Positions 37,762-62,489 of a stretch of 64,000 nucleotides of DNA are shown piece after piece; position 1 is the stretch's first letter; each line of letters begins with the position of its first letter. Where the stretch lies: IMG/VR virus record IMGVR_UViG_2645727901_000008; one strand, written 5' to 3'. The position numbers and the translations under genes are program-made. Below the pieces are notes generated by a model. The model was given only the letters and a program-made list of their open reading frames with translations. It had not been told where the DNA came from and did not search any database. The stretch comes from a virus (Duplodnaviria > Heunggongvirae > Uroviricota > Caudoviricetes).

Positions 37762-37837
37762 TGGTGGCCCCTACCGGACTTGAACCGGTGACCGTGCGAT
37801 TATGAGTCGCCAGCTCTAACCACTGAGCTAAAGGGCC
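37762..37837 (-). tRNA. tRNA-Ile2 (anticodon CAU, ileX-like; would be read as Met without lysidine context)
   Basis: Reverse complement GGCCCTTTAGCTCAGTGGTTAGAGC...GACTCATAATCGC...GGTTCAAGTCC...GGGGCCACCA nearly matches E. coli ileX. Confidence 0.85.
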
Positions 37838-37848
37838 AATTAGTGTTT

Positions 37849-37962
37849 TATTTTCGACGCCTGAGATTCTTCGCGACTTGTTCTACGCCGTATACGATCA
37901 CAAGTAGAAACAGCAAAAACCATCCAGGGTTCTTATCGATATACGTCCAAAAATCCATCATG
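37849..37962 (-). CDS. Possible small membrane peptide (about 37 aa)
   Basis: Translation MMDFWTYIDKNPGWFLLFLLVIVYGVEQVAKNLRRRK. Confidence 0.25.
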
Positions 37963-38120
37963 AGTTCCTGAACGCACCTTCAATAATCGGCAATAGCAAT
38001 ACCACAGCTACTGAAACTAATGCCCCATCAGCCAACACCGACATCACTTTGCTGGTGAAATCCACCAGTACGGACAAAACGAGAAAGCCAATGGCGCCCG
38101 CAATACGCGCCTTGCCAATC
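37959..38120 (-). CDS. Possible small membrane protein (about 53 aa)
   Basis: Translation MIGKARIAGAIGFLVLSVLVDFTSKVMSVLADGALVSVAVVLLLPIIEGAFRNS. Confidence 0.25.
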
Positions 38121-38121
38121 A

Positions 38122-38577
38122 TTACAGATAATCTTCCACACGAAGGCCAAGACGGCGACCAACCTCTTCCAGAACCTTATGCTCCGCAGGTTCGATTTCA
38201 CCATCTGCTTCAGCGATCGTGAGCATGTTCACGAAGACTTCTTCCGCTTCTTTGGGATCGTTTTTGATATCTTCAATTTCGCGGAGGATATTCATGCGAC
38301 CAACACGGAAACCAGCTTCCAGTTGCTCAGTAAAACGGGTGATTGTTGCGGTAATTTCGTTGCCAAAATGACTTAAGCGAGGATTAGAGCGGACAAGCTG
38401 ATCAAGTTTCGCTGTTTCTTCCTTTTCGATTTCACCATCTGCGGCAGACACCAGCAAACAGCCACCGATGATGGCCTCCATCAGATCGCGATTCTCAACC
38501 CTTTTCAGCTCTACTTTTGCTGAAGCGACTTTCTTACCGAAAAATTTACCGAACATTGGTTTTCCCTCAATAAACAT
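38122..38577 (-). CDS. TerB-like (tellurite-resistance family) protein; start may be ATG at 38556
   Basis: Repeated helical ...ADGEIE... segments typical of TerB-like proteins; GAGGGAAAA RBS before the internal ATG. Confidence 0.5.
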   Translation of the reverse strand: MFIEGKPMFGKFFGKKVASAKVELKRVENRDLMEAIIGGCLLVSAADGEIEKEETAKLDQLVRSNPRLSHFGNEITATITRFTEQLEAGFRVGRMNILREIEDIKNDPKEAEEVFVNMLTIAEADGEIEPAEHKVLEEVGRRLGLRVEDYL

Positions 38578-38823
38578 GACGTATTTATTAGGTTGCGGTG
38601 CCTGGTGCCTCCAGGTGACGTTAACCAGTTAACAATTAACGCCGGGATTTTTGTCTTCACAATTAAGGAGGATTGTTTTAACTGTTCCGCGTGCGCTTAG
38701 CCGCATTCACCGCAATGGTAAGAGCACTTGGCTGGCTGGGCGGCGATGACGCCTGTACGCATTTGGTGAACCGGTTCTGCTTCCGGCATTCGCTTAATTA
38801 GCCAAATACTCTTAACGTTGCAC

Positions 38824-38910
38824 TGGCGGAGAGTAATGGAATCGAACCATCATCGCTTGCGCAATGGGACGGTTTTCAAGACCGCTTGAGCACCATGCTC
38901 CCTACTCTCC
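38824..38910 (-). tRNA. tRNA-Ser-like (anticodon UGA, long variable arm), atypical D-arm
   Basis: 7-bp acceptor GGAGAGT/ACTCTCC, anticodon loop CTTGAAA, T-loop TTCGATT, encoded CCA; folded by eye. Confidence 0.5.
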
Positions 38911-39045
38911 CGTTATTGTGGCGACCGGTGCTGATCTCCGGCTTGCGGTTATTTCAGACTCTCACGGGCGTTTAATTGCCCCGCCGAACAGCTCTTTTCC
39001 GCAATAGCTGCAATGTCTTTCGCGCATCAGCCTGCGCATTCACCA

Positions 39046-39135
39046 CAATGTTGAGAACACTGGTTGTCACGCTGCAACGCAACATTTATTCGTAGATTGG
39101 GATATGACCCCGTTACGCCAGTGTTCTCAACGTTG
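39046..39135. repeat. 18-bp inverted repeat CAATGTTGAGAACACTGG ... CCAGTGTTCTCAACGTTG flanking about 54 bp
   Basis: Read from sequence; one mismatch between arms. Confidence 0.55.
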
Positions 39136-39283
39136 TAGTGCCGGTTACGGTTCCGGCCAGGCCTCTTCCTCAACGGGTTGTTCTCCATACGGACTACCGT
39201 TTATTGGTCGTTCCTGCGGTTTATGTTGTGAAGCCAGATGCTTATCTTCTGGTTGCTTCAAAGAGCTGCACTTCATCACAACG

Positions 39284-39356
39284 GTAAGGGTACTTCGTAG
39301 GGATTCGAACCCTCTGCCAAGCACGGCGATCTCCGACGTCGCAAAATACCCTTACC
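39284..39356 (-). other. tRNA-like element with T-arm (GGGTTCGAATCCC) and 10-bp closing stem but no canonical anticodon arm; possible tRNA pseudogene
   Basis: Folded by eye; T-loop present, cloverleaf incomplete. Confidence 0.25.
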
Positions 39357-39364
39357 TGTTGCGT

Positions 39365-39440
39365 TGGTGCCGATTAACGGGATCGAACCGCTGACCATTC
39401 GCTTACAAAGCGACTGCTCTACCAACTGAGCTAAACCGGC
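39365..39440 (-). tRNA. tRNA-Thr (anticodon UGU)
   Basis: Reverse complement GCCGGTTTAGCTCAGTTGGTAGAGC...CTTTGTAAG...GGTTCGATCC...CGGCACCA. Confidence 0.85.
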
Positions 39441-39444
39441 AATT

Positions 39445-39531
39445 TGGTGGGGAGTGATGGAGTCGAACCACCCGAGTCGCAATGACAGTAGATTTACAGT
39501 CTACCCCGCTACCCCTACGGACTAACTCCCC
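39445..39531 (-). tRNA. tRNA-Tyr-like (anticodon GUA, class II long variable arm)
   Basis: Acceptor GGGGAGT/ACTCCCC, anticodon stem-loop GTAGA-CTGTAAA-TCTAC, T-loop TTCGACT, encoded CCA. Confidence 0.6.
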
Positions 39532-39536
39532 TAAAG

Positions 39537-39612
39537 TGGCGATGGTGGGTGGATTCGAACCACCGACCGACAGCTTAGAAGGCTGCTGCTCTATCCTACT
39601 GAGCTACACCAT
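39537..39612 (-). tRNA. tRNA-Arg (anticodon UCU)
   Basis: Reverse complement GATGGTGTAGCTCAGTAGGATAGAGC...CTTCTAA...GGTTCGAATCC...CACCATCGCCA. Confidence 0.85.
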
Positions 39613-40853
39613 CACTTGCCGGGTACGTCTCCGGCGAGGGCTTCCACCTCCGTATGCTTTTCGGCGCACCGCGCCCTGGCTGCAATTCAGTAACAGGGGA
39701 TGCATAACCCTGGCTTCCAGCGTGATTAGCGCCTTCAGCATGACGGGATATACCCGTAACCAACAAACTTTCCCATATACCATCAAACAATGGCTGTTAC
39801 GCGGGAGGGACGTAACAGGTAAGGGCGCTGACCAGAAAGACCTGACCCTTCTCATTCATCTGGTTAATCACACCAGCGCCCTTGCCTGTTATGTCTCCCC
39901 GTTCCCTAATACACAGACGGGGACACTCTGCGGTCGATTTTTTGACGGGGGACGACTCATACCCCGTGGCGTCTGGCTTCTTAGGCCGCTACCATCATCA
40001 GATCATCGTTTGCATTTACTTTAATGGTCGGTTTCTAAACCGCCGCAAAGCCGCTAACCATGACGAAAACCCTAAAAAAGCCCACCCGAAGATGGGCAAA
40101 TACGCTACATCTCACACAAGAAAGAAGCCGACTGCCTGAGCTGGATTCACTTTCAAATGCCCGCAGAAAGGGAACACAAGTCGGCTTCTTTCTTGATGCG
40201 GCACTCTCTCCGCCCGTCACCGTTCTGTCTCGGTTGTCGCGTTTGCCACGCCAGCCGTAACGAGGTTTAAAGTCTTTGCACGTTTCCATCACTCGACTGC
40301 CGTCTGTGGCTGTTCGTTGCAGCGGGGGTGCCTCCCCCTGGGGATATCCCCGGCCTTACCCCATTCTTTCAAGACACAATGCAAGGCCGCATCCGCATAG
40401 GTGCATTACCGCAACATTAAGGAGACTTAGGGCAAAAGGTAATCGCCACAAAAAAAATCCCTATGCCTCCTTAATGTTGAGGATGTGCATTGATGATGAT
40501 TCGATGCGGCGAGTCCCGTTACTCTCTGCCGGACCATCATCAATGAACATCTTAAAAAGACCTTCCGTGGCTCAACATGTCTTGTCGTTTACTCCGTAAA
40601 GTGCTCTCTCTGAAACCACTTTACGCACTAAACCTGCTGAACTTTGGCTTGCTCGGTGCCAAAGCGAGTCCCTGTATGTATGTAATTTTCTAACACTTTA
40701 ATTTGTTATTTGCTGGTGGGCGAACAACAACCAATAAGTGACTATCAAGCCCAGCAAGCGAAATGTGGCAACGCTCCACCAGCAAGGAAAATTCTAAGTT
40801 AAGTTACTCTCACAATCAATACGTTCGTTTAGTGAAATTAGATTTCTAACATT
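39613..40853. other. About 1.2 kb without a convincing CDS; rich in long-loop inverted repeats
   Basis: Only short, overlapping ORFs in all frames; 13-bp inverted repeat CAACATTAAGGAG...CTCCTTAATGTTG around 40408-40478 and others. Confidence 0.4.
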
Positions 40854-42688: not shown

Positions 42689-43132
42689 TTAATCAAGACA
42701 AACATATTCCGTGATAGCTTTTATGGCTTCATCGGCACTGCGCGCCTCAAAGCAGTAATAGCCTGCTTCCGTGAGGCGAGTCATCCAGACGAGCTGTTCG
42801 GGAGTCAGACGGTTTCTCCCGTGCTTCATCTCAATGCGCATTCCGTGATACCCACCACGAGCAAGGTCAATAGAAAGGTCCGGATAGCCCTTCTTCTGAC
42901 CTTCTGCCACCATCTTAATGGCTGTCCTTTTGCCTCTCAGGCCGCCGTTCGGTGTTGAGTGTGTGTGCTCATACACGTATCGCATGTTGCGATACAGCCA
43001 ATCCAGAACGCGAACCTGTTCGTAATGTTCGTAATTCCGTTTTAATAAGTCAGGATTTCTTTCTAACTCTCTCAGTGCAGCAGCGTGCGGGGATATTTCA
43101 GAATACGCACTATGATGCCTGCGTCTTCGCAT
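42689..43132 (-). CDS. VRR-NUC domain nuclease-like protein
   Basis: GYPDLSIDLARGGYHGMRIEMKHGRNRLTPEQ resembles the VRR-NUC (PD-(D/E)xK) motif; ATG at 43132. Confidence 0.6.
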   Translation of the reverse strand: MRRRRHHSAYSEISPHAAALRELERNPDLLKRNYEHYEQVRVLDWLYRNMRYVYEHTHSTPNGGLRGKRTAIKMVAEGQKKGYPDLSIDLARGGYHGMRIEMKHGRNRLTPEQLVWMTRLTEAGYYCFEARSADEAIKAITEYVCLD

Positions 43133-43320
43133 CAAATTTCTAACACAAACTTACTGAATTCATGAACACGATAATAACAAGAGCGTTAGTTTTATCAAAC
43201 CGAGGGGAATACTACTGAAGAGATAGGCGGATGCAACAGGTCGGACTTGTTTTTAGAGTAAATGGTGATGCGGGTCAACAAGCCGGGTAAATTGTATGTC
43301 ATTTACCCAACTTGTTATTT

Positions 43321-44054: not shown

Positions 44055-47000
44055 TTAGGCCGCATCGGCGATTATTTTACGCAATTCATCTACCGAGTAA
44101 CGCGTAGATACCATCCATGCAGGACGGTCAAAGTTCACATCAGCAACCGGGTTTGCTTCAAAATTCCAGAAACGCCCGCCAATCTTCTTAATCGCGTCTT
44201 TGGCGTTCCGTATTGTCGAGGAACCAGGTTGGTCGGCAATGAGATAAACCGCACCGACGTCCTCGCTGACACTCCACCAGCGCCCGCGAACACGCGCCTT
44301 AGCGCGAATCGGCTTATCATTAACCACAATGATATAGTCATCATTCGCCGCTTCATCAGCTCTGGCTTCAGCCACTGCCGCCTGCTCTTCTCTTTTGCTT
44401 TCAGCCTGTTCAAGCCTTTCCGCGATCTCTGATTCGGTGGCCCCGCCGTTTTTCAGCGATACATAGTCTTGCCACGTTGCTGATTTGAGCGCATCCGGCA
44501 ACTCATTCACATAGTCACCGTCTTTCAACTCACGGGCGCGGCGGGTAGCCATTTCTACCAGGCGATTAACAGAAACAGCATCAGCAAAATCGTCCTTACT
44601 AATGTGTTTTTCATCAAATGCATTGATGACAGCCCCCACCTTAATCCACTGCGCTGCTGGCGAATCCAGAGGATTATCGGCCTGAACAATGGCTAATTTC
44701 GCTCCATCGACACCATTATTAGCCAGCTGCTCCAATGCCGACCAGCCATCGGCATCGCTGAGTGATTTATATTGCTCAAACAATGCATCGCGCCAGGCCA
44801 CCAGCGCAGCTCGTGTTTTCTCAATTTTCGCCGTAATTTTCGCGGCCTTCACCTGATTAAACATCCGTTCAATGTCATCAGTGTTGCTAAAGGCTTTCAT
44901 CCTGCCCTGGAATAAACGGTATGCCACCACGGTCTTCCAGAAAGATTCCAGCCCTTCTCCGGACGGTTTACGGAACAGGCTAAGAATATCTTCAGAAGTA
45001 ACTTTATTAAGTGAGCGACCGGACAAACCACGCCCTGCCATCCAGTTTTCAAACTCCTGGGAAACATCATCCATCGTGGCCTGTGACCCCCATGCCTGCA
45101 TTCCCTGGATGTAATCATATCCATACAATGCCTGGAGGAATCCCTCGCCGTCCACGACATTCAGCGGGTTATCACTGGCTTGTATTTTTGCCACTTCACG
45201 CTTCAGCGCCTCATCGTTGCCATCAGGGTAAATCCACCGCTCAGGCGCTATATCCGATGCTCGCCCGATTTTTTGACCTATTACGCCATCATAAGCCGAT
45301 GACAGTGCAATCTGACCATCATCGGTGCGATAAGCCCAGTATTTAATAGCTGAACCACCGCCCCATACTCTACTAGGCTTCCCGGCAGTGACATTCATTA
45401 CCCCATTGCGAATAGCATCATAGAACTGATCGCGCGTAAGTGTTGTTGATAGCTGGTGGCATTGAACACCACGTGCAGCTGTTTCACGCGATTCTGCAAC
45501 TCCCTCTTCAAAGGTTACCGATTCAATTATCAGGTTAAAGGGCAAAAATAATGCCGTCCCCGGAGAACGAGAGTAACGACTAGCCACATCCAGCCAGGAT
45601 ATGCGGCACGTACACCCGCCCCTTTCCGCATCAATGGCGGTAACACGAACAATTGCTGTCGTATTGTGATTCTCATCGATGATCGCGCGATAATGGCTGC
45701 CCTTGTGCAACAAGATATTTTTCTCAGTGCGTACATACTCCTGTGGGTTCTGCAATACATCGGCATCAAGCTCCAGAACCCCGGCTTTAATCGCACGTTC
45801 CAGATCACCACGAGAACGTTTCATAACGGTGTCAGCGTCTTTAGCTCTGGTGATCGCAAAGCGTAGCTCCCGCACACGTTTTCTGTAGTCTCGCAACTGT
45901 TCCAGAACATATTTCTGCCCGTTCCTGTTCGTCCCCGCTTTAATCAGGTCGTCAAGATTGCGCTGGTAATGCTCTACCTGCTCCATCGCGCTTTTCAGTT
46001 CTGTCTCCATCATGCCGATATCTTTCCCGGCAGCATTCGCCGCTTTCAGGTAGTTATCGAGAGCATTATTGGCTTCGCGTAGGGCTTTCAGTTTCAGACG
46101 TTCTTCACGCTCTTGCGCCTGACGACTCATGATTGCACGGCGTTCTTCCGGATTTGCCGCCAGCATAATGGCGCGTTCATCTGCGTCATCCGCATCACCA
46201 TTGGCGATCTCTGACATGTCGGAGGTCATCACCATATTGATCCAGTCCTTCTTACGTTTCAGCGTATCCAGACGGAAGTCATCAAATGTGCCTTTGCCAC
46301 AATAGTAGTGAACATTGACCTTTTCTTGTGGTGAGCCTACCCGAGCGCCGCGCCCATTACGTTGGTCGATACTGGCAGGAGTCCAGGGTAGTGTCAGATG
46401 GTGGATATCGGTTGTCCCGATGTGCAAGTTAATACCTACTTCAGCCTTCTTGTTACAGATTATGATGCGCGTGCGACCTTCGTTATAGTCGGCGGCAATA
46501 CCTTCCATGCCCTCAAGGCCAGCATCATTTTTAGCTGAGAGATAATCCTCATATTGGGCAAGTTTGCTGTAGTAGGTTTCCCATGCACCTTCTTTGTATT
46601 CACCGTTTTTATTTGGCGTAGGTTCAGTCGGCTTATTCACCTTCTTCAGCTTGACGCCGCCAGCCTGGCTAACTGTCGTCGCATTGATAATGCCTATCTC
46701 CTGCTCCGGCATTTGCAGTGCACTGGCAATAATACGGCGCAGCTTCTGGTGCTGGGCTTTTTCATCAATGAAGACGATTTGTTTACCGTTCTTCAGACCT
46801 TCACGAAGGTTTTCGATCAGCGCGGCATACTTCGGCGGGATGGGGTGTGATACCTGCTGCATATCAATACCGGCAGCCGCAATGGCCTTCAGTATTTCAG
46901 CTTCCAGTTCAATGCCAGCACGTATTTCAACATGCGACGGATGTTCGCTAAAGGTGGTCTTCACTACCTTGCTGGCACGCGTACTGACCAGCCCACCAGC

Positions 47001-50000
47001 GCCATCTTCTTCGGCCTCGTCTACATCATCTGCCACTTTACCGCCAGCTACTTTTGGCAGGGCATCAGCAATAGCTTTTACCTTGTCTGCAAGCTCAACG
47101 GGGAACTGGAATGTAATCGCACTGGCATACAGATCAGGATCTATAGCAACCTTATCCATGTCGCGGATGATGGAGAAGATGAAATCATCCGGTTTTTCGT
47201 TTGTGATATGCCCGTTTTCATCGACCGTCAGCGCATCTTTACTACTTAACTCCTGTGCACGCTTACGAAGTTCTTCGTAAATGGCCTCTTGCTCTCCTGT
47301 CATCGGGATCTGCAAGGTATTCTCGACAATATCAGGGATTTTTACCGTCGCCCCGACGTCCGCAGCAGTCTTCAGAGTAGTCCAGCGATGGAAAATACCA
47401 CGCAGACCATCCAGGTTCTGGAAGCCCACCAGTCCCTGCTTCTCTTCCACCTCACCGGAAATTTTCTGAACCTGAACTGTGGCTGTTTTACCGAACACGC
47501 GAACGAAATCATCCGGCGTAACAATACCCATGCGCATCCACTCTTCCTGCGGAATGACAGTAGACAGCATGTTGAAAGCATCAATCGGGCTGTTCACCAG
47601 CGGTGTTGCCGTCAGCATAACCACACCACGCCCGTTGTTGCGTTTCATCATGTACGCAGCTTTTACAGCCATGTCGCGGGCCATTTTGGATACTGCCGGG
47701 TTAGGCAAATATGCCAGTTGCCCCGCTTCGCGCCCGGCGCTAAAGGAGTTGCGGTAGTTATGCCCTTCGTCGGCAATTACGCTATCGAAGTTCATATCCT
47801 CAAAGTACGGGATATTCTGCTTCTTCGTTGTACCGGTATTTGCGGCCTGGTCCTTAATCTTGTTCTTCTTCTGCGCGTCACGGTGTTTGCCAGATGCCAG
47901 GTCAAGACGCCCCATTTCCACAGCATTAAAGACCGCTTGCTGTGAGTTTTCCTCAATGGTTTCTTCTCGTAGCGGGATAGACGCGAATTGCTCTTTTGTC
48001 ATGATGACCGTTCGCCAATTTGACGACGGGATCATGTTCATGCGCTGAACGATAACGGCGCTGGCGGACTCTTTCACAACATTTCTGGTAAGAGCCTGCC
48101 CGTTACTGTCGAGGCGTGGTTCGCCATTTTCATCAAGCACCGGCGCGGTCAGAATATTTCCGCTGTCATCACGAACTTCATCCAAACCGATAAACATCAT
48201 ATTGGCGAAGGCATCAGAACTGTAGAAACTCTGTGCCTCGTGATACCAGTTCTGATAAACCGCCTTCGGAACAACAATACACGTGCGTTTAGTGCGACCT
48301 GTTTCGAAGTTATACGCCTCAAGCGCAAGCGCGGTCGTGGTTTTACCCAGCCCGGTGCCAAATCCCATGATGCCGCGCCCATCTTCTGATAAGCGACGAA
48401 CTTCTTCATTCTGATAAGTCAGAGGAATGCGCTTCCCACTAATCCCCTCCAGGCCAAGCGGTGCGTCAGAATGCGTAAACGGGATGAAGCCATTAAATGC
48501 GTCGTTATAGTCGCGGGCTATCTGATCAGCCTGCGGGTGAGTGCGTAACCAGTCGTTGAAGCTAATTTCCAGTTGAGCAATCTTATCCAGGTACTCGTTA
48601 GCGTTCTGCCCACGCGGTTTAATGCCGTTCAGGTAGTTTTCTAACTGGTTCAGGAAGCCGTCTTTATTGTTGGCCTTCTTGAACTCATTCCCGTTTTTGC
48701 CGTTTACGGTTCGTAGTTGATAGCCAGTAAATACCCCGTCCTTACCTTCGTAATCGTCCGGAGATACCAGAATGCCGTCCTCAACCTTAAGGTCGGGTTC
48801 TGTATACTTAAACTCGTCATAGCCCTGCTCTGCCAGGAACTCTTTTATCAAGCGGCGATCCAGCCAGCGGGCGTTCAGATTAACGGTGACTTTATTTAGT
48901 GGCGTGAAAATGCGTTTCTCTTCGATTTTCGCCAACTGACGCTCAAAGTTCGCTTTCTGCTCACCTGTTGACGCATCACGCCAGCCCACCAGCAATGCTG
49001 TTTTGGTTGCAATATCGCCGCTGGTGGCGCGGTCCATCGGCAGCAGGCAGCCATACCCATCAATAGCGATATCATCAAATTTCGCCAGGTATTCCAGAGC
49101 AGCATCGTCGTCTCCTGGCAGTTCGCCAGCAAACGCCTCACGAAAATCGTCCAGTGTGATTGGATTAAGTGCCACGTCACTGAAAAGGTGGGTTACAACT
49201 TGTTCCGGGCGTGTAAAGTCAATACCGGCAGCACCATCCGTTACATCAAGTCGTCCAGCAAGGAGGTCAGAAGCAGAGCCGTCCTGTTTCACGTTGCCAG
49301 TGAAAGTCATCCAGTTTTTAGCGCCAGCTTCAGCAATCCCATTCAGCTTAATCGCGTGCGGCGGACCATACTTCGCAATTTCGGCTTCCGCCAGGCGCGC
49401 GGCATCAGCAAGTACATCATCAACATTTTCCCCCAGATTACGCTTATCAAGCGCCTTGTTGATCAACTGCCCTATCAGTGCGCCGCGCATAACGCGTTCT
49501 CTGTCTTTTTCTCTCTGCTTGCCAGCAAAGCGAATCATTGCCGCTACTTCATCACTGATAACCGATGGATAGTCGGACGCGATCGCCGATATCTGGTCCC
49601 ATGACAACGCCAGAATGCCATTTGTTGACTGAAACGCGATCTGCAGATCACCAAACGTCGTAACACCATATCGATTTACATCAAGCGCGGAGGATTTGGT
49701 TGTCGCGTCCTTGACCCATTTCAGACCATCAAACTCATGCCAGATGCCGCCTACAAGGCGTTTATCGCCCACTTTCGCGCCCTGCCATGCCTGAGTAGTT
49801 ACGCCAAGCAAATCCCAATTAATGCGGCTTTCAAAGCGGCGCGATAGAGCGGTTTTCATCGACTCATTGGATACACGACCGTCCTTTTTCACCACCAGGG
49901 TATTGCGGAAGCTGGTACGCTCCATATCGCCGTAAACAAATCGCTTCCCTTCGGTTGTAAACCATTTTCCTTTGAGGAAGGTATCCCAAAGGACGTTTGC

Positions 50001-50894
50001 CGATTTGAGCGTTGCATCATCCGTGTCGGGGATCATCTCCAGGAAGGTTTCCGGGTGTTTACGCAATACCCATACGTCCACCACGGTATCTGTACCGGAT
50101 TCGCTGAACGTACCAGAAGGCATACGATGTGCGCCCAAAAATTCCGCTTTACGGCTGACTTTATCGCGCAATTTTTTGTATTTCGTACCATCGGTCATGC
50201 CATTCGGCACCACCAATACAATTAGTCCACCAGGTTTAACCTTGTCGATCGTGCGCAACACAAAGTAATTGCCAACGTTCTTCTCGTTTGCATATGCCGG
50301 ATCAAGCCCGGCAACGCCGGAACGCCCTTCACCAAACGGTACGTTACCAACAGCGTGGTCATACATTGCGTCTTTCGCCGCCAGCGCCTCAAACGCCCCG
50401 ATATTCACATCGTCTTCCGGGTGCAAAAGCTGGTTTATTCGACCGGAAATCGGAGACAGTTCGGCGCTGGTCATTATCATGCCCTGCCGTTTTGTCTCCT
50501 GGAAAATACCTGTGCCCGCTGATGGTTCCAGTACGTGCCCACCATCAATACCGTAGTCAGCAAACAGATCCCATATACCTTCAGCCATAAACTGTGGCGT
50601 GTAGTATTCGTATTGGCTGCCCTCACCATCTGTCAGGCCGCCTTCACCGGTATACCCGGCAAGAATCTGACGTTGTTCGTCAGTTAATTTCGCCCCATCG
50701 AAGCCGGGCGGAAGGGAATTAAGAAGATTTACTGCGGCATTGTTTGCTGCCCGGCGTGTTTTCTGAATACTGACGCCATCGGCTTTCCTGACGCCAAAGG
50801 TCGCAACAGCACGTAATTTATGCAACCGACTAACAATTTCAATCAGTTCGCCTAAGCTGGAGGCTTCACTGATTGAATGAAGTAGTTTGTCCAA
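44055..50894 (-). CDS. darB: DarB-like giant antirestriction protein (N6-adenine methyltransferase plus SF2 helicase), TTG start
   Basis: 2279 aa; MTase motifs EPSAGTGIF and GNVPFGEG; helicase motifs GFGTGLGKTTTAL, DEGHNYRN, LTATPLVNS; size matches P1 DarB. Confidence 0.8.
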   Translation of the reverse strand: MDKLLHSISEASSLGELIEIVSRLHKLRAVATFGVRKADGVSIQKTRRAANNAAVNLLNSLPPGFDGAKLTDEQRQILAGYTGEGGLTDGEGSQYEYYTPQFMAEGIWDLFADYGIDGGHVLEPSAGTGIFQETKRQGMIMTSAELSPISGRINQLLHPEDDVNIGAFEALAAKDAMYDHAVGNVPFGEGRSGVAGLDPAYANEKNVGNYFVLRTIDKVKPGGLIVLVVPNGMTDGTKYKKLRDKVSRKAEFLGAHRMPSGTFSESGTDTVVDVWVLRKHPETFLEMIPDTDDATLKSANVLWDTFLKGKWFTTEGKRFVYGDMERTSFRNTLVVKKDGRVSNESMKTALSRRFESRINWDLLGVTTQAWQGAKVGDKRLVGGIWHEFDGLKWVKDATTKSSALDVNRYGVTTFGDLQIAFQSTNGILALSWDQISAIASDYPSVISDEVAAMIRFAGKQREKDRERVMRGALIGQLINKALDKRNLGENVDDVLADAARLAEAEIAKYGPPHAIKLNGIAEAGAKNWMTFTGNVKQDGSASDLLAGRLDVTDGAAGIDFTRPEQVVTHLFSDVALNPITLDDFREAFAGELPGDDDAALEYLAKFDDIAIDGYGCLLPMDRATSGDIATKTALLVGWRDASTGEQKANFERQLAKIEEKRIFTPLNKVTVNLNARWLDRRLIKEFLAEQGYDEFKYTEPDLKVEDGILVSPDDYEGKDGVFTGYQLRTVNGKNGNEFKKANNKDGFLNQLENYLNGIKPRGQNANEYLDKIAQLEISFNDWLRTHPQADQIARDYNDAFNGFIPFTHSDAPLGLEGISGKRIPLTYQNEEVRRLSEDGRGIMGFGTGLGKTTTALALEAYNFETGRTKRTCIVVPKAVYQNWYHEAQSFYSSDAFANMMFIGLDEVRDDSGNILTAPVLDENGEPRLDSNGQALTRNVVKESASAVIVQRMNMIPSSNWRTVIMTKEQFASIPLREETIEENSQQAVFNAVEMGRLDLASGKHRDAQKKNKIKDQAANTGTTKKQNIPYFEDMNFDSVIADEGHNYRNSFSAGREAGQLAYLPNPAVSKMARDMAVKAAYMMKRNNGRGVVMLTATPLVNSPIDAFNMLSTVIPQEEWMRMGIVTPDDFVRVFGKTATVQVQKISGEVEEKQGLVGFQNLDGLRGIFHRWTTLKTAADVGATVKIPDIVENTLQIPMTGEQEAIYEELRKRAQELSSKDALTVDENGHITNEKPDDFIFSIIRDMDKVAIDPDLYASAITFQFPVELADKVKAIADALPKVAGGKVADDVDEAEEDGAGGLVSTRASKVVKTTFSEHPSHVEIRAGIELEAEILKAIAAAGIDMQQVSHPIPPKYAALIENLREGLKNGKQIVFIDEKAQHQKLRRIIASALQMPEQEIGIINATTVSQAGGVKLKKVNKPTEPTPNKNGEYKEGAWETYYSKLAQYEDYLSAKNDAGLEGMEGIAADYNEGRTRIIICNKKAEVGINLHIGTTDIHHLTLPWTPASIDQRNGRGARVGSPQEKVNVHYYCGKGTFDDFRLDTLKRKKDWINMVMTSDMSEIANGDADDADERAIMLAANPEERRAIMSRQAQEREERLKLKALREANNALDNYLKAANAAGKDIGMMETELKSAMEQVEHYQRNLDDLIKAGTNRNGQKYVLEQLRDYRKRVRELRFAITRAKDADTVMKRSRGDLERAIKAGVLELDADVLQNPQEYVRTEKNILLHKGSHYRAIIDENHNTTAIVRVTAIDAERGGCTCRISWLDVASRYSRSPGTALFLPFNLIIESVTFEEGVAESRETAARGVQCHQLSTTLTRDQFYDAIRNGVMNVTAGKPSRVWGGGSAIKYWAYRTDDGQIALSSAYDGVIGQKIGRASDIAPERWIYPDGNDEALKREVAKIQASDNPLNVVDGEGFLQALYGYDYIQGMQAWGSQATMDDVSQEFENWMAGRGLSGRSLNKVTSEDILSLFRKPSGEGLESFWKTVVAYRLFQGRMKAFSNTDDIERMFNQVKAAKITAKIEKTRAALVAWRDALFEQYKSLSDADGWSALEQLANNGVDGAKLAIVQADNPLDSPAAQWIKVGAVINAFDEKHISKDDFADAVSVNRLVEMATRRARELKDGDYVNELPDALKSATWQDYVSLKNGGATESEIAERLEQAESKREEQAAVAEARADEAANDDYIIVVNDKPIRAKARVRGRWWSVSEDVGAVYLIADQPGSSTIRNAKDAIKKIGGRFWNFEANPVADVNFDRPAWMVSTRYSVDELRKIIADAA

Positions 50895-51045
50895 AGGATT
50901 TCCCCCTCTAAACCGTAAAAAATTCCGCTATGCGGTACGGTTGAGAGGGTATGGAGAATGTTATTTTCAGGGGGACGATACTACCGTCAAAATCACATAC
51001 TCCCCATAGTTTGCCTACTTATTAACCCATGACCGGGAGAAAAAT

Positions 51046-51531: not shown

Positions 51532-51555
51532 AAAAAGCCCCGGCCAGGCCGGGGC
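51531..51555 (-). terminator. Rho-independent terminator (GCCCCGG-CCAG-CCGGGGC plus T6 on minus strand)
   Basis: Hairpin and A6/T6 tract read from sequence. Confidence 0.55.
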
Positions 51556-57425: not shown

Positions 57426-57983
57426 CTAATCTGGATCAACAATAAGTTGTGAAACCTTCGCTGCAAGTCTTATATAGCGTTCAGCTTCATTTCTGGTGAT
57501 TTCAAAATCCAGAAAGTGCGCGGCTTCATTTCTTAGCGAGCGAAGCCGTTTTAACAGCAAAGCAGCGGAATCTTCAAGTTTTCCTTCTTGAATCAACCAG
57601 TCAATGAATAGTTCTGGATTCCGTTTCGGCTTTAACCCTCCCTGTATAAAACCAGAGCGCCCGGCAGCCTCCTCTACCATCAACCATGACTCCATAATAG
57701 CAGCTCTAGGTGAAAAATCAGCAATTCTCTCTAATTGTGCGATTTTATTTATATATTCAGAGTTATTATTACCATTGTTAATATTTTTATTCCCAACTGA
57801 TGCATCTGTTGCTAATACTTCTGCTGCGGTTAGTCCCGCATTAAACTCAGCTTCAGCTGCTCCAATCTTGAATCTACTCAGACGTACTATTAACTCCTTA
57901 ATATCAACCCCATACTTATTAACAAACCACACAAACACCAATGGCCATGCAAGAGCTGAAACCAAATCTGTAAATGATGACAT
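57426..57983 (-). CDS. Membrane-anchored protein with HEPN-like Rx4H motif (AT-rich island)
   Basis: N-terminal hydrophobic helix; C-terminal LRSLRNEAAHFLDF fits Rx4-6H. Confidence 0.45.
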   Translation of the reverse strand: MSSFTDLVSALAWPLVFVWFVNKYGVDIKELIVRLSRFKIGAAEAEFNAGLTAAEVLATDASVGNKNINNGNNNSEYINKIAQLERIADFSPRAAIMESWLMVEEAAGRSGFIQGGLKPKRNPELFIDWLIQEGKLEDSAALLLKRLRSLRNEAAHFLDFEITRNEAERYIRLAAKVSQLIVDPD

Positions 57984-58108: not shown

Positions 58109-59485
58109 TTACCCAACAGAGGTTGACTCAAACATAGAAAAAATTAACCCTTTACCTTCGCCAAACTCAGTCTCAATTTCATCAGAAACGGCAGATAAAA
58201 TGCTACGCAGATCGACATCTCCGCCGCCGAACATATCGCCTAACGCTTGTTGTTGGTGAATAAGTTCATCGTTAATTTTTTGCGCCAGTTTCTTGAAAGC
58301 GGCCCCCATTCGCTTAGCGCTTCGGTTGTTGGCAACAATAAACAGAGCAAGCGCTTCTGCTTCCGGAGTGCTATCTCCAAACAATCCACGCTGTGCGATC
58401 ACCTCTTCTACTGCCTGACCGTTATCTTTTGCTTCACGAACAAGGTTAATTGCTTCCTGGAGTGCTGCTATCGCCTGTGTATCCAGGCCATTAACCTGCT
58501 CTATACCGTCCACTAAGCCTGTTACTGCGTCATGGTGAGCGTCGCCAGACAGCGACTGCATTTGCGCAAAATCGCTGGCTGCCGTATTTAATGCGGTCAG
58601 GATATTACGCATTTCCGGATCTGGCTCTTCCGACACTAGCCGAACAAGCCTTTCATCCTTGTACGCTTTGGCAAAAATTGCATTCTGGATGCGATCGATA
58701 AGCTGTTTCGTGGGACGCCCATCGGCAGTAAGCAAGCCTGCCGTCGCTGTATCGCCAATTTCGCGCAAAAACGCACGAATAAACGCATCATTGGACCGCG
58801 CCAGCAGATTTCCATCATCTGAAGGATTAAATAGCGCCATGACGCTCTCAGTGAGAAATTGCGCATCCGCATACGCTTTTTCACTTGCTGCCATCTCTTG
58901 CAGATCGCTAATGTTTGAATCGCGGGCAAATTGAGCGCGGTCTACATCTGTGAGTCTTTCTCGCACTAGTACGGGCATAGACATTTGCGAAATTTCGTCA
59001 GGATTCAGACCAAACTCTTTCGCATGGTCGATCAGGTACTGGCGATACTCATCCGCCTGTCCTTGCTCATAGGCACGCCAGATACCCATACTCCTTCCGT
59101 TGCCGGATTCAACAACGTTGTCCGGACCAACTATCGGCGCTCCGTGGCTGCTCATACCGGAATCCGTTAATTGTGCCGGGCGTAAATTGGAGGCAATACG
59201 GTTAACCTGGAGTTTGCTGGATAGCCGGGTACGATCTCGTGGTTGGAGTTCTTCCGGGAAGGCCGGGTTAATCATACCGTCAAGGTTGTTCGAAATGATC
59301 AGACTGCTGGCATCAACGACCTTAAAAGCCGTCTTTACCTCTGCACCTTTGCTGGTGACTACGTAGCTACTTCGCCCCAGGCGTGTTTCTTTCCTCTCTA
59401 ATGAAGAAACCAGAGCAATGACGCTGTTAATATCTGCGGCCTCGGAAAGCGCAGAAGTAACTGATTTGTTCAAAATACACTCCAA
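58109..59485 (-). CDS. Hypothetical virion-associated protein (458 aa), in the DarA-operon neighbourhood
   Basis: Long ORF downstream of the DarA-like gene. Confidence 0.45.
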   Translation of the reverse strand: MECILNKSVTSALSEAADINSVIALVSSLERKETRLGRSSYVVTSKGAEVKTAFKVVDASSLIISNNLDGMINPAFPEELQPRDRTRLSSKLQVNRIASNLRPAQLTDSGMSSHGAPIVGPDNVVESGNGRSMGIWRAYEQGQADEYRQYLIDHAKEFGLNPDEISQMSMPVLVRERLTDVDRAQFARDSNISDLQEMAASEKAYADAQFLTESVMALFNPSDDGNLLARSNDAFIRAFLREIGDTATAGLLTADGRPTKQLIDRIQNAIFAKAYKDERLVRLVSEEPDPEMRNILTALNTAASDFAQMQSLSGDAHHDAVTGLVDGIEQVNGLDTQAIAALQEAINLVREAKDNGQAVEEVIAQRGLFGDSTPEAEALALFIVANNRSAKRMGAAFKKLAQKINDELIHQQQALGDMFGGGDVDLRSILSAVSDEIETEFGEGKGLIFSMFESTSVG

Positions 59486-59567: not shown

Positions 59568-59936
59568 TTACCCGGCATAACCGTTGGCTTTCACCCAGCT
59601 TATGGTCTGTTCTTTAGCCTGCTCCAACGTAAGGAACTCGCCAACATAGTTTGAGATCCCACGCAGCGCATCAATAAATTCCATTTGTGTGGACTTTGTG
59701 AACACACCGCCCAGGAAGTCAGTCACTATCTTAGGGACTTCATCTACAACAGGATCAGTCTGTTGTTGCGGTTCCGCTGCCGGTTGCGCGGCAGTCCCCA
59801 GGCCCAATTTCAGCATCACATCAACAATCTGCTTACCAATGGTGACGCGTTGCAATACTGGCGCAGTTTTCTGCGCCTGCATTAGATCTGATAGCTCTTT
59901 ACCTAATTTCAGGCGGTCTAAAACAGAGATGGTCAT
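59568..59936 (-). CDS. Hypothetical protein (122 aa) coupled to the DarA-like gene
   Basis: ORF start overlaps upstream stop. Confidence 0.45.
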   Translation of the reverse strand: MTISVLDRLKLGKELSDLMQAQKTAPVLQRVTIGKQIVDVMLKLGLGTAAQPAAEPQQQTDPVVDEVPKIVTDFLGGVFTKSTQMEFIDALRGISNYVGEFLTLEQAKEQTISWVKANGYAG

Positions 59937-61861
59937 TAAGCACCTCCCTGCTGAATTTCAGCCAGAATGTTGATCAGGTAGTCAACTGCTGCACCCACAG
60001 TGGCTTCGTTCTCGTCGTATCGACCTGCACTGATTAGAGCATTTGCTGCTTCCTGTACATGATCAAGTTCAGTACTGATGACCGTCAGATCGCGGGGTGT
60101 AAACTGCTCCGGAACGGATTTCAGGTACTCCAGCGCTTTATCTGCCTCCTGATCAGCTTCACTTGCTGATTCACCAGCTTCTTCTGGCTCCGGCTCCTGT
60201 TCTGTTGCTGGTTGTGGTTGTGATTCCGGATCAACCACATGCTCTGTTTTTACTTCGATTGAATGATTTTGAAGGGCGTTATACACGTCCATAATGAAAA
60301 GGTTCTCCCCATCACCAAGTGGATACGCCACGTTTGGAAACGCTTTGCGGAAAAGAATTTTCACTTGCGCCTTGAATGTTTTCAGGTCACTGCCAAACAG
60401 GTCTACATAGCCATCAATATGTTTCGACATGCTGGACACAACCAATTGGCCTGCAAAATCTTTCAGCTCATCTTCATCAGGAAGATAGAGCAACTCGTAC
60501 TGGCTGACTTCTTCATCTGTCAGTTTACGGTCATACGTAATGATACCGTGACGAGCATATTCGTAATACTGATCAGCCTGGTCAGGACGATCAATCACGG
60601 CTTTATTTCCATCCGGCACAGCACCAACACCAGCCGGGCGAGATTGAAGTGCATAGTGGTATTTACCTACATCCTGGCTCTCTTGTTGTGATACTGGGTT
60701 CGTCTCGGGGTCTGTCTGTGGTGGTTCGGAGTCTTCCTGCTGGCCTGGTAACACATCAACTTTATATTTATCTGCGTTATGCTCTCGGTAGGCTTTAAGT
60801 AATTTGGTTGCAGCATCTGCCAAACTGCCTCCTTTGACAGCACTGGCATCAATACTGAATTTACCTTCAGGTGCTACTATCGTAACGAAATTGTCACTGC
60901 CGGACGTGACATAATTAACTTCAGCGCCATTATCCAGCACTGTTTTTCCGTCAATGGCAAGATTATGTTTTACATGTCGCAGCTGGTCACTAAACGCTCG
61001 CTCTTTCGTTTTTTCACCTTTAGCAGACAACAATTTATCGCGTTTTGCTTGTAATTCCTCGTTGATGGCTTTCTGGGCATCAAGTTTTTTTTGCATCTCC
61101 GTAAGAGCAGCACGCTTTTCAGTCAGCCCACGTTGCGCAACTTCCACCTGATCAATCATTATTGACCGTTCTTCTGCCAGTTTATCTGCTTCATTGAGAT
61201 AACTCTCAATATCTGCCTTCATTTTGTCCTGGCGCTCTTTTGCTTTCTTAAATTTTTCGCTGTTACGCTCAATCAAATTAGATAGCGCCTGGCATACCTG
61301 GCTTAAAGAAACATCTCTCCCACCAATCGGGGCGACAACGTGAGTTACGTTACGTTTATTAAGTAAAAACTGAAATGCAACAAGCTCGTCGTTACTCTTT
61401 ATTTTTGCCCCGTCAGATGTTGGAGAGTGGAAAATTATGCTTGTACTCTGCCCGTCAGTAAGCGGTATCTGCGCGGTCAAAACAGGGATATTAGCTACCC
61501 GACGTACACGACCGATAATCGCACCACCAATACAATTACGTCCATTTTCATCGGCCCCGGCTTCATCAGTCCCTGCCATAATATTCGTACCATTCAGGCC
61601 ACGATTCAGCGCACGGACGAAAGCTCGCATTGTTTGAGCTAACCGAATTCTGGTTGTAGTTATGGACTCAAACATAGCTTCGTCAGACACAACCAGAATT
61701 TCATTGCCCATATAGGCAAGCTCAATATCTTCTAAGGTCGCCGCCTCAAAAATCAGGTCATCTTCGCTTAATTCTTCTGAAGACCAGCGACTTGGCATAT
61801 AGCCGGGGATCGTATCAGCAAAAGTAGACTGAATATTAATTCGTAAAGGATTGTTAATCAT
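59936..61861 (-). CDS. darA: DarA-like internal head / antirestriction protein (start at internal ATG 61861)
   Basis: About 641 aa from the internal start, matching P1 DarA size; follows the lydA-lydB-like pair; assignment partly positional. Confidence 0.5.
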   Translation of the reverse strand: MINNPLRINIQSTFADTIPGYMPSRWSSEELSEDDLIFEAATLEDIELAYMGNEILVVSDEAMFESITTTRIRLAQTMRAFVRALNRGLNGTNIMAGTDEAGADENGRNCIGGAIIGRVRRVANIPVLTAQIPLTDGQSTSIIFHSPTSDGAKIKSNDELVAFQFLLNKRNVTHVVAPIGGRDVSLSQVCQALSNLIERNSEKFKKAKERQDKMKADIESYLNEADKLAEERSIMIDQVEVAQRGLTEKRAALTEMQKKLDAQKAINEELQAKRDKLLSAKGEKTKERAFSDQLRHVKHNLAIDGKTVLDNGAEVNYVTSGSDNFVTIVAPEGKFSIDASAVKGGSLADAATKLLKAYREHNADKYKVDVLPGQQEDSEPPQTDPETNPVSQQESQDVGKYHYALQSRPAGVGAVPDGNKAVIDRPDQADQYYEYARHGIITYDRKLTDEEVSQYELLYLPDEDELKDFAGQLVVSSMSKHIDGYVDLFGSDLKTFKAQVKILFRKAFPNVAYPLGDGENLFIMDVYNALQNHSIEVKTEHVVDPESQPQPATEQEPEPEEAGESASEADQEADKALEYLKSVPEQFTPRDLTVISTELDHVQEAANALISAGRYDENEATVGAAVDYLINILAEIQQGGA

Positions 61862-62489
61862 GCTCATCCTCCAGGCGCGCGATTTCTTCTTTAAGAGCAC
61901 GTGTCTTAGCTACTTCCTGAGACAAGGCAGCTTTAACGTTACCCGTATCTTGCATTACTTTGTCTGACTTGCTCTGGAGTTTAGACAGTTTGTCGTTAGC
62001 ATTAGCGATATCTTCACGGAGTGCATCACGTGATTCTTTCGCTTCAGCTAATTTCTGAGCGTTAGATTTAACTCCCTGCCGCTTCTTATTTCCGTCATCA
62101 ATATTTTTTGCTGCACGAGCAAGTTTTCGAGCTAATGACTTCTGGAAAGAAGTTGCTCCGCGATTAAATAAAGCCGCAAGAGATTGCCCCAAAGCCGACA
62201 TTGTTTTTACTGGCTTGAACGGTACTGTTTTACCATTCAGTTTGATCCCAGATATATCACCGGTATCGTTAACCTGAACTTCCATTGTCTGTTCATCAAT
62301 ACCAATAAGGGTAAACGTGCGCGTCATGATCCCATCTTTCTTCCTGCCATTACTTGCAGGGATCACCCTCGCTATCTTGTAACCACCTTTGCTGATTTCT
62401 TTGACGAGTTTTGCCAGCCCCTTTTCGTTTAACTCATCATAATTAAGAAGAACATAATTATTCTTATTTGACATCCCAGTCTCCTTCAC
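61854..62489 (-). CDS. Hypothetical protein (211 aa), Hdf-like by position
   Basis: ORF between the lydB-like and DarA-like genes. Confidence 0.4.
   Translation of the reverse strand: MKETGMSNKNNYVLLNYDELNEKGLAKLVKEISKGGYKIARVIPASNGRKKDGIMTRTFTLIGIDEQTMEVQVNDTGDISGIKLNGKTVPFKPVKTMSALGQSLAALFNRGATSFQKSLARKLARAAKNIDDGNKKRQGVKSNAQKLAEAKESRDALREDIANANDKLSKLQSKSDKVMQDTGNVKAALSQEVAKTRALKEEIARLEDEHD

Follow-up and report, generated by a model that had tools for sequence, protein, structure and literature searches.

Does the very large minus-strand gene carried by a 64,000-nucleotide stretch of tailed-phage DNA (Caudoviricetes; IMG/VR record IMGVR_UViG_2645727901_000008, the whole stretch being called the window below) encode the antirestriction protein DarB known from phage P1, and, if it does, in what respects does it depart from the P1 model? 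The gene is a single open reading frame (ORF) of 2279 codons plus stop in the ORF listing (44055..50894), which an earlier reading of the sequence alone had described as a DarB-like methyltransferase-helicase with a TTG start. That reading gave no strand, but its coordinates, length, start codon, and Shine-Dalgarno (SD) sequence were all correct, and the attribution also holds: the protein is collinear with P1 DarB from end to end at 43% identity and is 95% identical to gp15 of Escherichia phage D6. The gene is very probably the darB ortholog of a D6-like, P1-related phage-plasmid of Escherichia coli.

The counterpart in D6, gene D6_15 (ASR76325.1), carries in GenBank the label “defense against restriction; similar to P1 gene darB” and agrees with the window gene in 92.9% of nucleotides over the full length. 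The exact protein, with the same N-terminus, is RefSeq WP_052936016.1, which is named “SNF2-related protein” and belongs to a 90%-identity cluster of 4384 sequences. Because the gene is already annotated in D6 and the exact protein is in RefSeq, it can be identified with the known darB. The alignment with P1 DarB (YP_006479.1, 2255 aa) is a single one, at 40% identity by BLASTP and 43% by MAFFT, in which every domain is present and the N-termini are in register. The two proteins share their length class and domain order, and both genes have ulx directly downstream and a companion lydA/lydB-hdf-darA-ddrA-ddrB operon. The profile phrog_1685 spans residues 1-2279 against 2278 profile positions, and phrog_10089, “DarB-like antirestriction,” is matched at 6e-78. 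A database search returned more than 1000 homologs, 2200-2320 aa long and encoded on Enterobacterales and Aeromonas contigs of 80-100 kb; the cluster of P1 DarB (16,340 members) is among them. The 16 kb around darB match 641 PLSDB plasmids, the best of which is 98.6% identical, and nearly all of these plasmids are nonmobilizable, ~90 kb in size, and derived from E. coli, Salmonella, or Shigella; of 5426 complete E. coli genomes, 98 have a D6-type darB, in every case on a plasmid. The first 25 kb of the window are likewise D6-like, and the backbone carries portal, protease, repL, and tail genes of the D6/P1 type. Judged from these matches, the window is part of a D6-like plasmid prophage of E. 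coli. A record of the identical protein also comes from a 178,700-bp contig, roughly double a D6-like plasmid in length, which could reflect a cointegrate or an assembly join.

Both enzymatic domains expected of a DarB are recognizable, which agrees with the N6-adenine methyltransferase and SF2 helicase motifs named in the sequence-only reading. The Pfam family N6_Mtase matched with 20.2 bits, just 0.2 below its cutoff of 20.4, and therefore residues 1-830 were modeled with AlphaFold (pLDDT 78.7) and compared with the PDB by Foldseek. The methylase model gave 312 matches at E ≤ 0.001, the best at 7e-9, including type I HsdM, EcoKI M, M.TaqI, M.BseCI, and CamA. With the TP motif at residues 99-100, motif I (EPSAGTG, 123-129), and motif IV (NVPF, 184-187) also in place, the assignment as an adenine methylase is sound. 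In the helicase domain, Pfam SNF2-rel_dom (E 5e-14), ResIII, and Helicase_C are each above cutoff, and motifs I, II, III, and VI are intact (GTGLGKT 846-852, DEGH 1042-1045, TATP 1095-1098, and QRNGRGAR 1511-1518). In an alignment of 33 homologs with identities down to 36%, the invariant residues were TP 99-100, E123 P124 ... G129, and N184 x P186 F187 in the methylase, and G846 T G x G K851, D1042 E x H1045, A1096 T P, and Q1511 RNGRGAR in the helicase. Such invariance of both catalytic centers argues that selection would act on the enzymatic activity, and it is the only evidence from this analysis that the enzymatic activities matter. A Pfam scan detected neither a nuclease nor a target-recognition domain in the protein. 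This architecture, in which a SWI2/SNF2 ATPase is joined to an EcoKI/TaqI-like adenine methylase bearing an N-terminal TP motif, is that of the “methylase-helicase dyad” of polyvalent proteins, of which DarB is the archetype (PMC5512222), and the window protein is a standard member that differs from the others in nothing of kind.

In P1, DarB, discovered nearly 40 years ago, is described as a head protein of ~250 kDa that was found in virions with liquid chromatography-tandem mass spectrometry, that is present at ~40 copies per virion, that is incorporated with the aid of Ulx and DdrB after Hdf, DarA, and DdrA, and that is believed to enter the cell together with the DNA (PMC9024508, PMC12810830). 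The first 30 residues of DarB are enough to direct a reporter into the capsid (PMC9024508), and deletion of darB, as cited in PMC11109961, renders P1 sensitive to EcoB and EcoK. Iyer et al. proposed that the SNF2 motor of the dyad carries the methylase along incoming DNA (PMC5512222). If the window protein behaves as the work on P1 suggests (Iida 1987 and Piya 2017, as cited in PMC9024508, PMC12810830, and PMC11109961), it would be made late in infection, loaded into the prohead via its N-terminus after Hdf, DarA, and DdrA with the help of Ulx and DdrB to ~40 copies per virion, and ejected with the DNA, which it would shield in cis against EcoKI/EcoBI-like type I restriction. In what seems the most likely mode, the SNF2 motor would track along the duplex as it enters, and meanwhile either the methylase joined to it would modify adenines or the complex would displace or block the type I enzymes; in the D6 clade, translation of DarB might in addition be throttled or gated by a leader hairpin together with the weak TTG codon. 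The internal proteins IPI* and IPIII of phage T4 offer an analogy (PMC9024508), as they are also antirestriction proteins that are carried in the head, possess an N-terminal capsid-targeting sequence, and are ejected with the DNA, but they have no sequence relationship with DarB and are small inhibitors, not enzymes.

One objection to this picture is that TTG might not be the true start, with initiation occurring instead at the ATG of codon 103, or that darB might be decaying. TTG is rarely used as a start codon, the SD and the start codon of darB are buried within a stable hairpin, and one relative, pSa1423, has a frameshifted copy of the gene. This is hardly credible. Read on the minus strand across the start (...GCA TAG CGG AAT TTT TTA CGG TTT AGA GGG GGA AAT CCT TTG GAC...), the frame opens at a TAG 12 codons 5' of TTG, and it then stays unbroken over 6.8 kb. 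The alternative starts within codons 1-120 are TTG24, which lacks an SD, and ATG103, which lies within the conserved methylase region and past the invariant TP motif, so that a start there would truncate the methylase domain. TTG1 is the sole start that has an SD and the sole one that fits the N-termini of the homologs: residue 1 of P1 DarB, encoded by ATG, is in register with it in both the BLASTP and the MAFFT alignments, and residues 1-102 are conserved and aligned with P1 DarB from residue 1. TTG and its SD are, moreover, retained in relatives down to 67% protein identity, and the identical start was chosen by the depositors of D6 and by PGAP. The statement in the sequence-only reading that TTG is the only in-frame start is therefore right with regard to the SD and the match to homologs, but not literally, because TTG24 and ATG103 are also in frame. 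The frameshifted copy is that of the Salmonella plasmid pSa1423-90k (NZ_MK356557.1, 54160-55004), in which 5' indels break the darB frame and only a 110-aa hypothetical protein is annotated; darB is apparently decaying in some D6-like plasmids. Three long ORFs lie antisense to darB on the plus strand (46594..47280, 47289..47945, and 49003..49572; 228, 218, and 189 aa), all with TTG starts, and they are probably by-products of codon composition.

Two further alternatives accept the gene as called and concern its role. One is that the protein is not virion cargo but a cytoplasmic methylase-translocase of the plasmid prophage, serving as a defense or epigenetic module like type ISP restriction-modification, DISARM, or BREX. 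Type ISP enzymes such as LlaGI and LlaBIII also unite a gamma-class adenine methylase with a dsDNA-tracking SF2 translocase in a single chain (LlaBIII, 4xqk, is a Foldseek match at E 8.8e-6), weak NCBIfam matches to DISARM DrmD and to DpdE were obtained, and darB has its own sigma-70-like candidate promoter. The domain order of type ISP enzymes is, however, reversed, their nuclease and target-recognition domains have no detectable counterpart in DarB, and the proposed role of DarB is the opposite one of shielding incoming DNA rather than attacking DNA. The NCBIfam matches stay far under their cutoffs (43.7 versus 610 bits for DrmD and 31.6 versus 500 for DpdE) and cover only the generic helicase C-lobe; scans of the protein and of the neighboring genes for families yielded no nuclease domain and no partner defense genes, the neighbors being phage structural, lysis, and dar genes. 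Since, in addition, a full-length ortholog was detected in P1 virions by mass spectrometry (PMC9024508) and both the adjacency to ulx and the complete dar set are conserved, we consider this alternative very improbable. The other is that relief from restriction comes mainly from the darB DNA, through Chi-stimulated, RecBCD/RecA-dependent, and ClpXP-mediated restriction alleviation, while the protein primarily serves another purpose such as head filling or DNA ejection. Plasmid-borne P1 darB still abolishes EcoKI defense when it carries stop-codon or catalytic mutations, an effect for which Chi and an EcoKI site are needed (PMC11109961), and the window darB holds six Chi sites (GCTGGTGG; at 44274, 44798, 45452, 46993, 48986, and 49020) against 0.08 expected per strand, or ~0.16 on both strands. 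The enrichment is, however, window-wide and not specific to darB, with 44 sites in the 64 kb (29 on the minus and 15 on the plus strand) versus ~1.5 expected. The plasmid effect requires an EcoKI site on the same molecule, and a search of the window darB found no EcoKI, EcoBI, or EcoAI site; the authors of PMC11109961 treat the Chi effect as an artifact to be controlled for, not as a mechanism of the phage; and the catalytic motifs of both enzymes would hardly be invariant throughout the family without selection on activity. This second alternative is improbable as well, if a little less so than the first. Chi enrichment over the window resembles that reported for P1.

The reading of the gene product as a virion-borne DarB that works as in P1 nevertheless has to face several points that weigh against it. 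Packaging, ejection, and antirestriction would all be extrapolations here from P1 at 43% identity, and even in P1 the mechanism of DarB “has not been defined” (PMC11109961). As plasmid-borne darB DNA relieves EcoKI restriction without the protein via Chi-dependent restriction alleviation (PMC11109961), part of the older plasmid-based evidence on darB is confounded by this protein-free effect. Within the segment that corresponds to the capsid-targeting signal of P1 DarB, which is only weakly conserved, the residues common to the window protein, D6, and P1, whose N-termini align one to one, are M1, K3, L4, S12, S13, E16, R28, and A29. A pattern for P1 late promoters derived from LPdar, LPlyz, and LPpro (AAGTKAYTW-N4-TANNNT) has three matches in the window, no more than expected by chance and none near darB. 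Finally, DdrB, one of the partners that assist DarB incorporation in P1, is only half-length: the window protein of 458 aa corresponds to residues 2-446 of the 995-aa P1 DdrB at 64% identity and lacks the HExxH-bearing C-terminal half, to which the product of the next ORF (57426..57983) has no similarity. The pathway of Dar assembly may thus differ from that of P1, and the half-length DdrB is the sole real basis for the suggestion in the sequence-only reading that the cargo might be altered. No evidence links the VRR-NUC gene, to which that reading also pointed, with the Dar system.

Two departures from P1 lie at the two ends of the gene. P1 darB uses ATG, an AAGGA SD, and an unstructured leader, whereas the window gene combines TTG with a structured one. 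In the window leader, UCCA pairs with a UGGA made up of the second and third bases of TTG and the two bases that follow, and CCCUCU pairs with the AGAGGG bases of the SD; the fold has a minimum free energy (MFE) of -25.7 kcal/mol and a z-score of -4.2. D6, E. fergusonii pEF-4, and four divergent plasmids have TTG as the homologous codon, each with (G/A)AGGGG 5' of it. TTG is also used by a relative from Raoultella (78% identical as a protein), by relatives from IMG/VR (85% identical across the N-terminal 400 residues), and by one 67% relative, while the relatives of 52-55% identity and P1 start with ATG or GTG. The block just 5' of the SD is conserved even where its flanks have diverged. The same hairpin architecture is the MFE fold in CP085065 (z -4.5), pEF-4 (z -2.3), Raoultella (z -4.1), and a further relative, L157 (z -5.8); the middle stems of Raoultella and L157 are wholly different in sequence and yet give the same architecture, and in the 67% relative the hairpin is shorter and still covers the SD. 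By contrast, the leaders of three loci with ATG or GTG starts (L014-L016) and of P1 have no more structure than shuffled sequences (z 0.0 to -1.0), and three more ATG-start leaders from IMG/VR, at z -1.5 to -2.3, lack a common hairpin covering the SD.

The consensus that RNAalifold derived from a MAFFT alignment of the leaders was weak (covariation term +1.5) because MAFFT had misaligned the variable stems; a covariance model based on the window sequence took its place, and 11 distinct leaders were aligned to it. In this alignment, which is fitted to the modeled structure and so leans toward it, pairing extends to 95.1% of cells, and in 6 of 21 pairs both sides have changed in a compensatory manner, the invariant outer stems giving no covariation signal. 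None of 500 shuffles reached this level of pairing and compensation, and slid controls were 24-53% paired. The hairpin has no family in Rfam 15, where the sole match was a chance one to a snoRNA on the opposite strand (16.5 bits versus 88, E 0.7). The leader motif was considered as a repeated promoter element and dismissed, as it occurs only once in the window; similarly, a degenerate leader pattern, CTCCATACC-N28-58-YTTTGRA, was sought in IMG/VR and, because among the matches listed its hits were indistinguishable from chance, was replaced by a protein-anchored search for loci. In the genomes compared, the TTG start is, as far as alignment and predicted folding can tell, a trait of the D6 clade accompanied by a hairpin that masks the SD and the start codon. 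Most likely, the hairpin and the weak TTG would attenuate or gate the translation of a very large protein that is required only late and in modest copy number, and the leader hairpin is a modest new observation, as yet unreported.

Transcription of darB may begin right in front of this structure. Either of the two candidate -10 hexamers of the putative darB promoter would put the predicted transcript start at the foot of the hairpin, and the TAACAT hexamer (50963-50958) aligns with the -10 of the predicted PdarB of P1. Farther upstream, a terminator-like hairpin (51537..51555) lies where the icd/ant/orf17 operon gives way to the convergent CHAP gene, and it is probably a terminator, setting darB-ulx apart as a transcription unit of its own.

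At the other end of the gene, conservation in the 33-homolog alignment falls beyond about residue 1570, and identity between the window protein and P1 DarB over the C-terminal ~700 aa is only 6-26% per 50-residue window. Residues 1560-2279 are modeled with confidence (pLDDT 85.6) as a long coiled-coil hairpin, a small beta barrel (~1720-1795), a helical domain and, at the terminus, a beta domain, and no structural homolog of this C-terminal third was recognized. Within it lies a sharply bounded variable segment. Compared with a second E. coli allele, P0003 (locus L010), the window shows 96-100% nucleotide identity from ~49970 to 45970, 65-73% from ~45970 to ~44180, and again 97% in ulx. D6 gp15, by comparison, has the same TTG start, leader, and neighbors and is an allele of one gene with that of the window, the main difference being a patch at aa 1682-1815 (45450..45850) with 69-75% nucleotide identity. 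In 97 of the 98 E. coli genomes the core segment reaches 90% identity or more; the cassette does so in 33, with 80-90% identity in 64 and 60-80% in 2. The sharp bounds and the identity classes indicate that old and diverged alleles are shuffled onto a constant enzymatic core. In the elements with the alternative allele, moreover, an additional gene of 114 aa intervenes between CHAP and darB (L010 3562..3906 and L011 1398..1742), and their first ~50 darB codons, at the position of the capsid signal, are more divergent, with 78% identity. The cassette, judged by its pattern of variation, would fit a specificity or interaction module, and this C-terminal cassette of ~600-620 residues is likewise a modest new observation that has not been reported before. 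One could go further and imagine the DarB of the D6 clade as a modular effector, in which a constant methylase-SNF2 engine carries a swappable cassette of ~600-620 aa that chooses the defenses or the capsid and partner, with the output gated by the leader hairpin, but we regard this as doubtful.

The surroundings of darB are a mixture of P1-like and divergent parts, so that the statement that its neighbors differ from P1 and that the antirestriction locus is rearranged applies only to the upstream side. All six Dar genes are present. The darB-ulx adjacency is that of P1 and is kept in every relative fetched, and hdf-darA-ddrA-ddrB follow the P1 order at 58.1-62.5 kb, ~7 kb upstream of darB, preceded by ORFs at the position of P1 lydA/lydB. 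On the 5' side, the D6 clade has a divergent gene for a CHAP/TIGR02594 peptidoglycan hydrolase and then orf17, a Rha/Roi antirepressor gene, icd, repL, pro, and prt on the darB strand, whereas in P1, as in relatives of 53-55% identity, the 5' neighbor is the portal gene (prt), divergent from darB; pro and prt are co-oriented in the window versus divergent in P1. Downstream, the small genes mentioned in the sequence-only reading exist, but the first of them is ulx, itself a Dar component in its P1 position. The 86-aa gene after ulx was considered as an Lxc homolog, which is what follows in P1, and rejected because it has no similarity. The VRR-NUC gene was correctly noticed and, according to the D6 annotation, is a pmgM homolog. 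Five tRNA genes (Met-CAT, Ser-TGA, Thr-TGT, Tyr-GTA, and Arg-TCT) lie at 37762..39613 on the minus strand, and since D6 is annotated with Asn, Thr, and Ser tRNAs at the matching place, the tRNA array varies among D6-like elements. The features of the window are collected in Table 1.

Table 1. Coordinates of darB, its control elements and domains, and the associated genes in the window
Feature	Position	Strand	Evidence and remarks
darB coding sequence	44055..50894	-	TTG start; 100% identical to WP_052936016.1, 95% to D6 gp15, 43% to P1 DarB
TTG start codon	50892..50894	-	homologous to the ATG of P1 darB; kept in all D6-clade relatives sampled
Shine-Dalgarno sequence AGAGGGGG	50902..50909	-	7 nt before TTG; (G/A)AGGGG conserved in relatives
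Conserved leader hairpin	50890..50955	-	UCCA/UGGA stem, CCCUCU/AGAGGG stem, middle stem, apical CCGC/GCGG hairpin
Candidate darB promoter	50958..50990	-	TTGACG 50990-50985, 16 nt, GAAAAT 50968-50963, or TAACAT 50963-50958; consensus match only
Terminator-like hairpin	51537..51555	-	strong GC-rich stem, then T-run: GCCCCGGCCTGGCCGGGGC TTTTTT
Residues 1-30, position of the P1 DarB capsid-targeting signal	50805..50894	-	PMC9024508; 8 of 30 residues invariant among window, D6, and P1
Gamma-class N6-adenine DNA methyltransferase domain, ~aa 95-330	49905..50612	-	Pfam, motifs, structure model, and fold match
Conserved central region of unknown function, ~aa 331-820	48435..49904	-	conserved in 33 homologs; moderate-confidence model; no family match
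SNF2-type SF2 ATPase/translocase with a long insert between the lobes, ~aa 821-1560	46215..48434	-	Pfam/NCBIfam, motif conservation
C-terminal third, aa 1561-2279: coiled-coil hairpin, small beta barrel, helical domain, terminal beta domain	44058..46214	-	no recognizable homolog
Allelic recombination cassette in darB, ~aa 1642-2240	44180..45970	-	drop in nucleotide identity versus allele L010; three identity classes
ulx homolog, 144 aa	43584..44018	-	phrog_1629 “Ulx-like anti-restriction” at 4.5e-59; 46% identical to P1 Ulx
VRR-NUC gene	42689..43135	-	Pfam 26.2 bits versus cutoff of 23.8; counterpart D6_12 “similar to P1 pmgM”
ddrB homolog, N-terminal half only, ParB-like domain	58109..59485	-	Pfam ddrB-ParB 1.9e-42; 64% identical to P1 DdrB
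ddrA homolog	59568..59936	-	phrog_1855 at 4.8e-50
darA homolog	59936..61900	-	Pfam DarA_N 9.7e-40, DarA_C 9.1e-19
hdf homolog	61854..62489	-	phrog_1620 at 1.6e-76; Pfam DarA_N

The darB gene itself adds no novelty, being already catalogued and abundant in databases, and the earlier call was correct but ordinary; as it was stated, that finding brings nothing new. The leader hairpin and the C-terminal cassette are worth a note, not a headline. The natural variants of the cassette on a near-identical enzymatic core form a ready swap series for the mapping of specificity, and the conserved hairpin that masks the ribosome-binding site, together with TTG, hints at translational control over how much DarB is made, or when, in the D6 clade, but not in P1.

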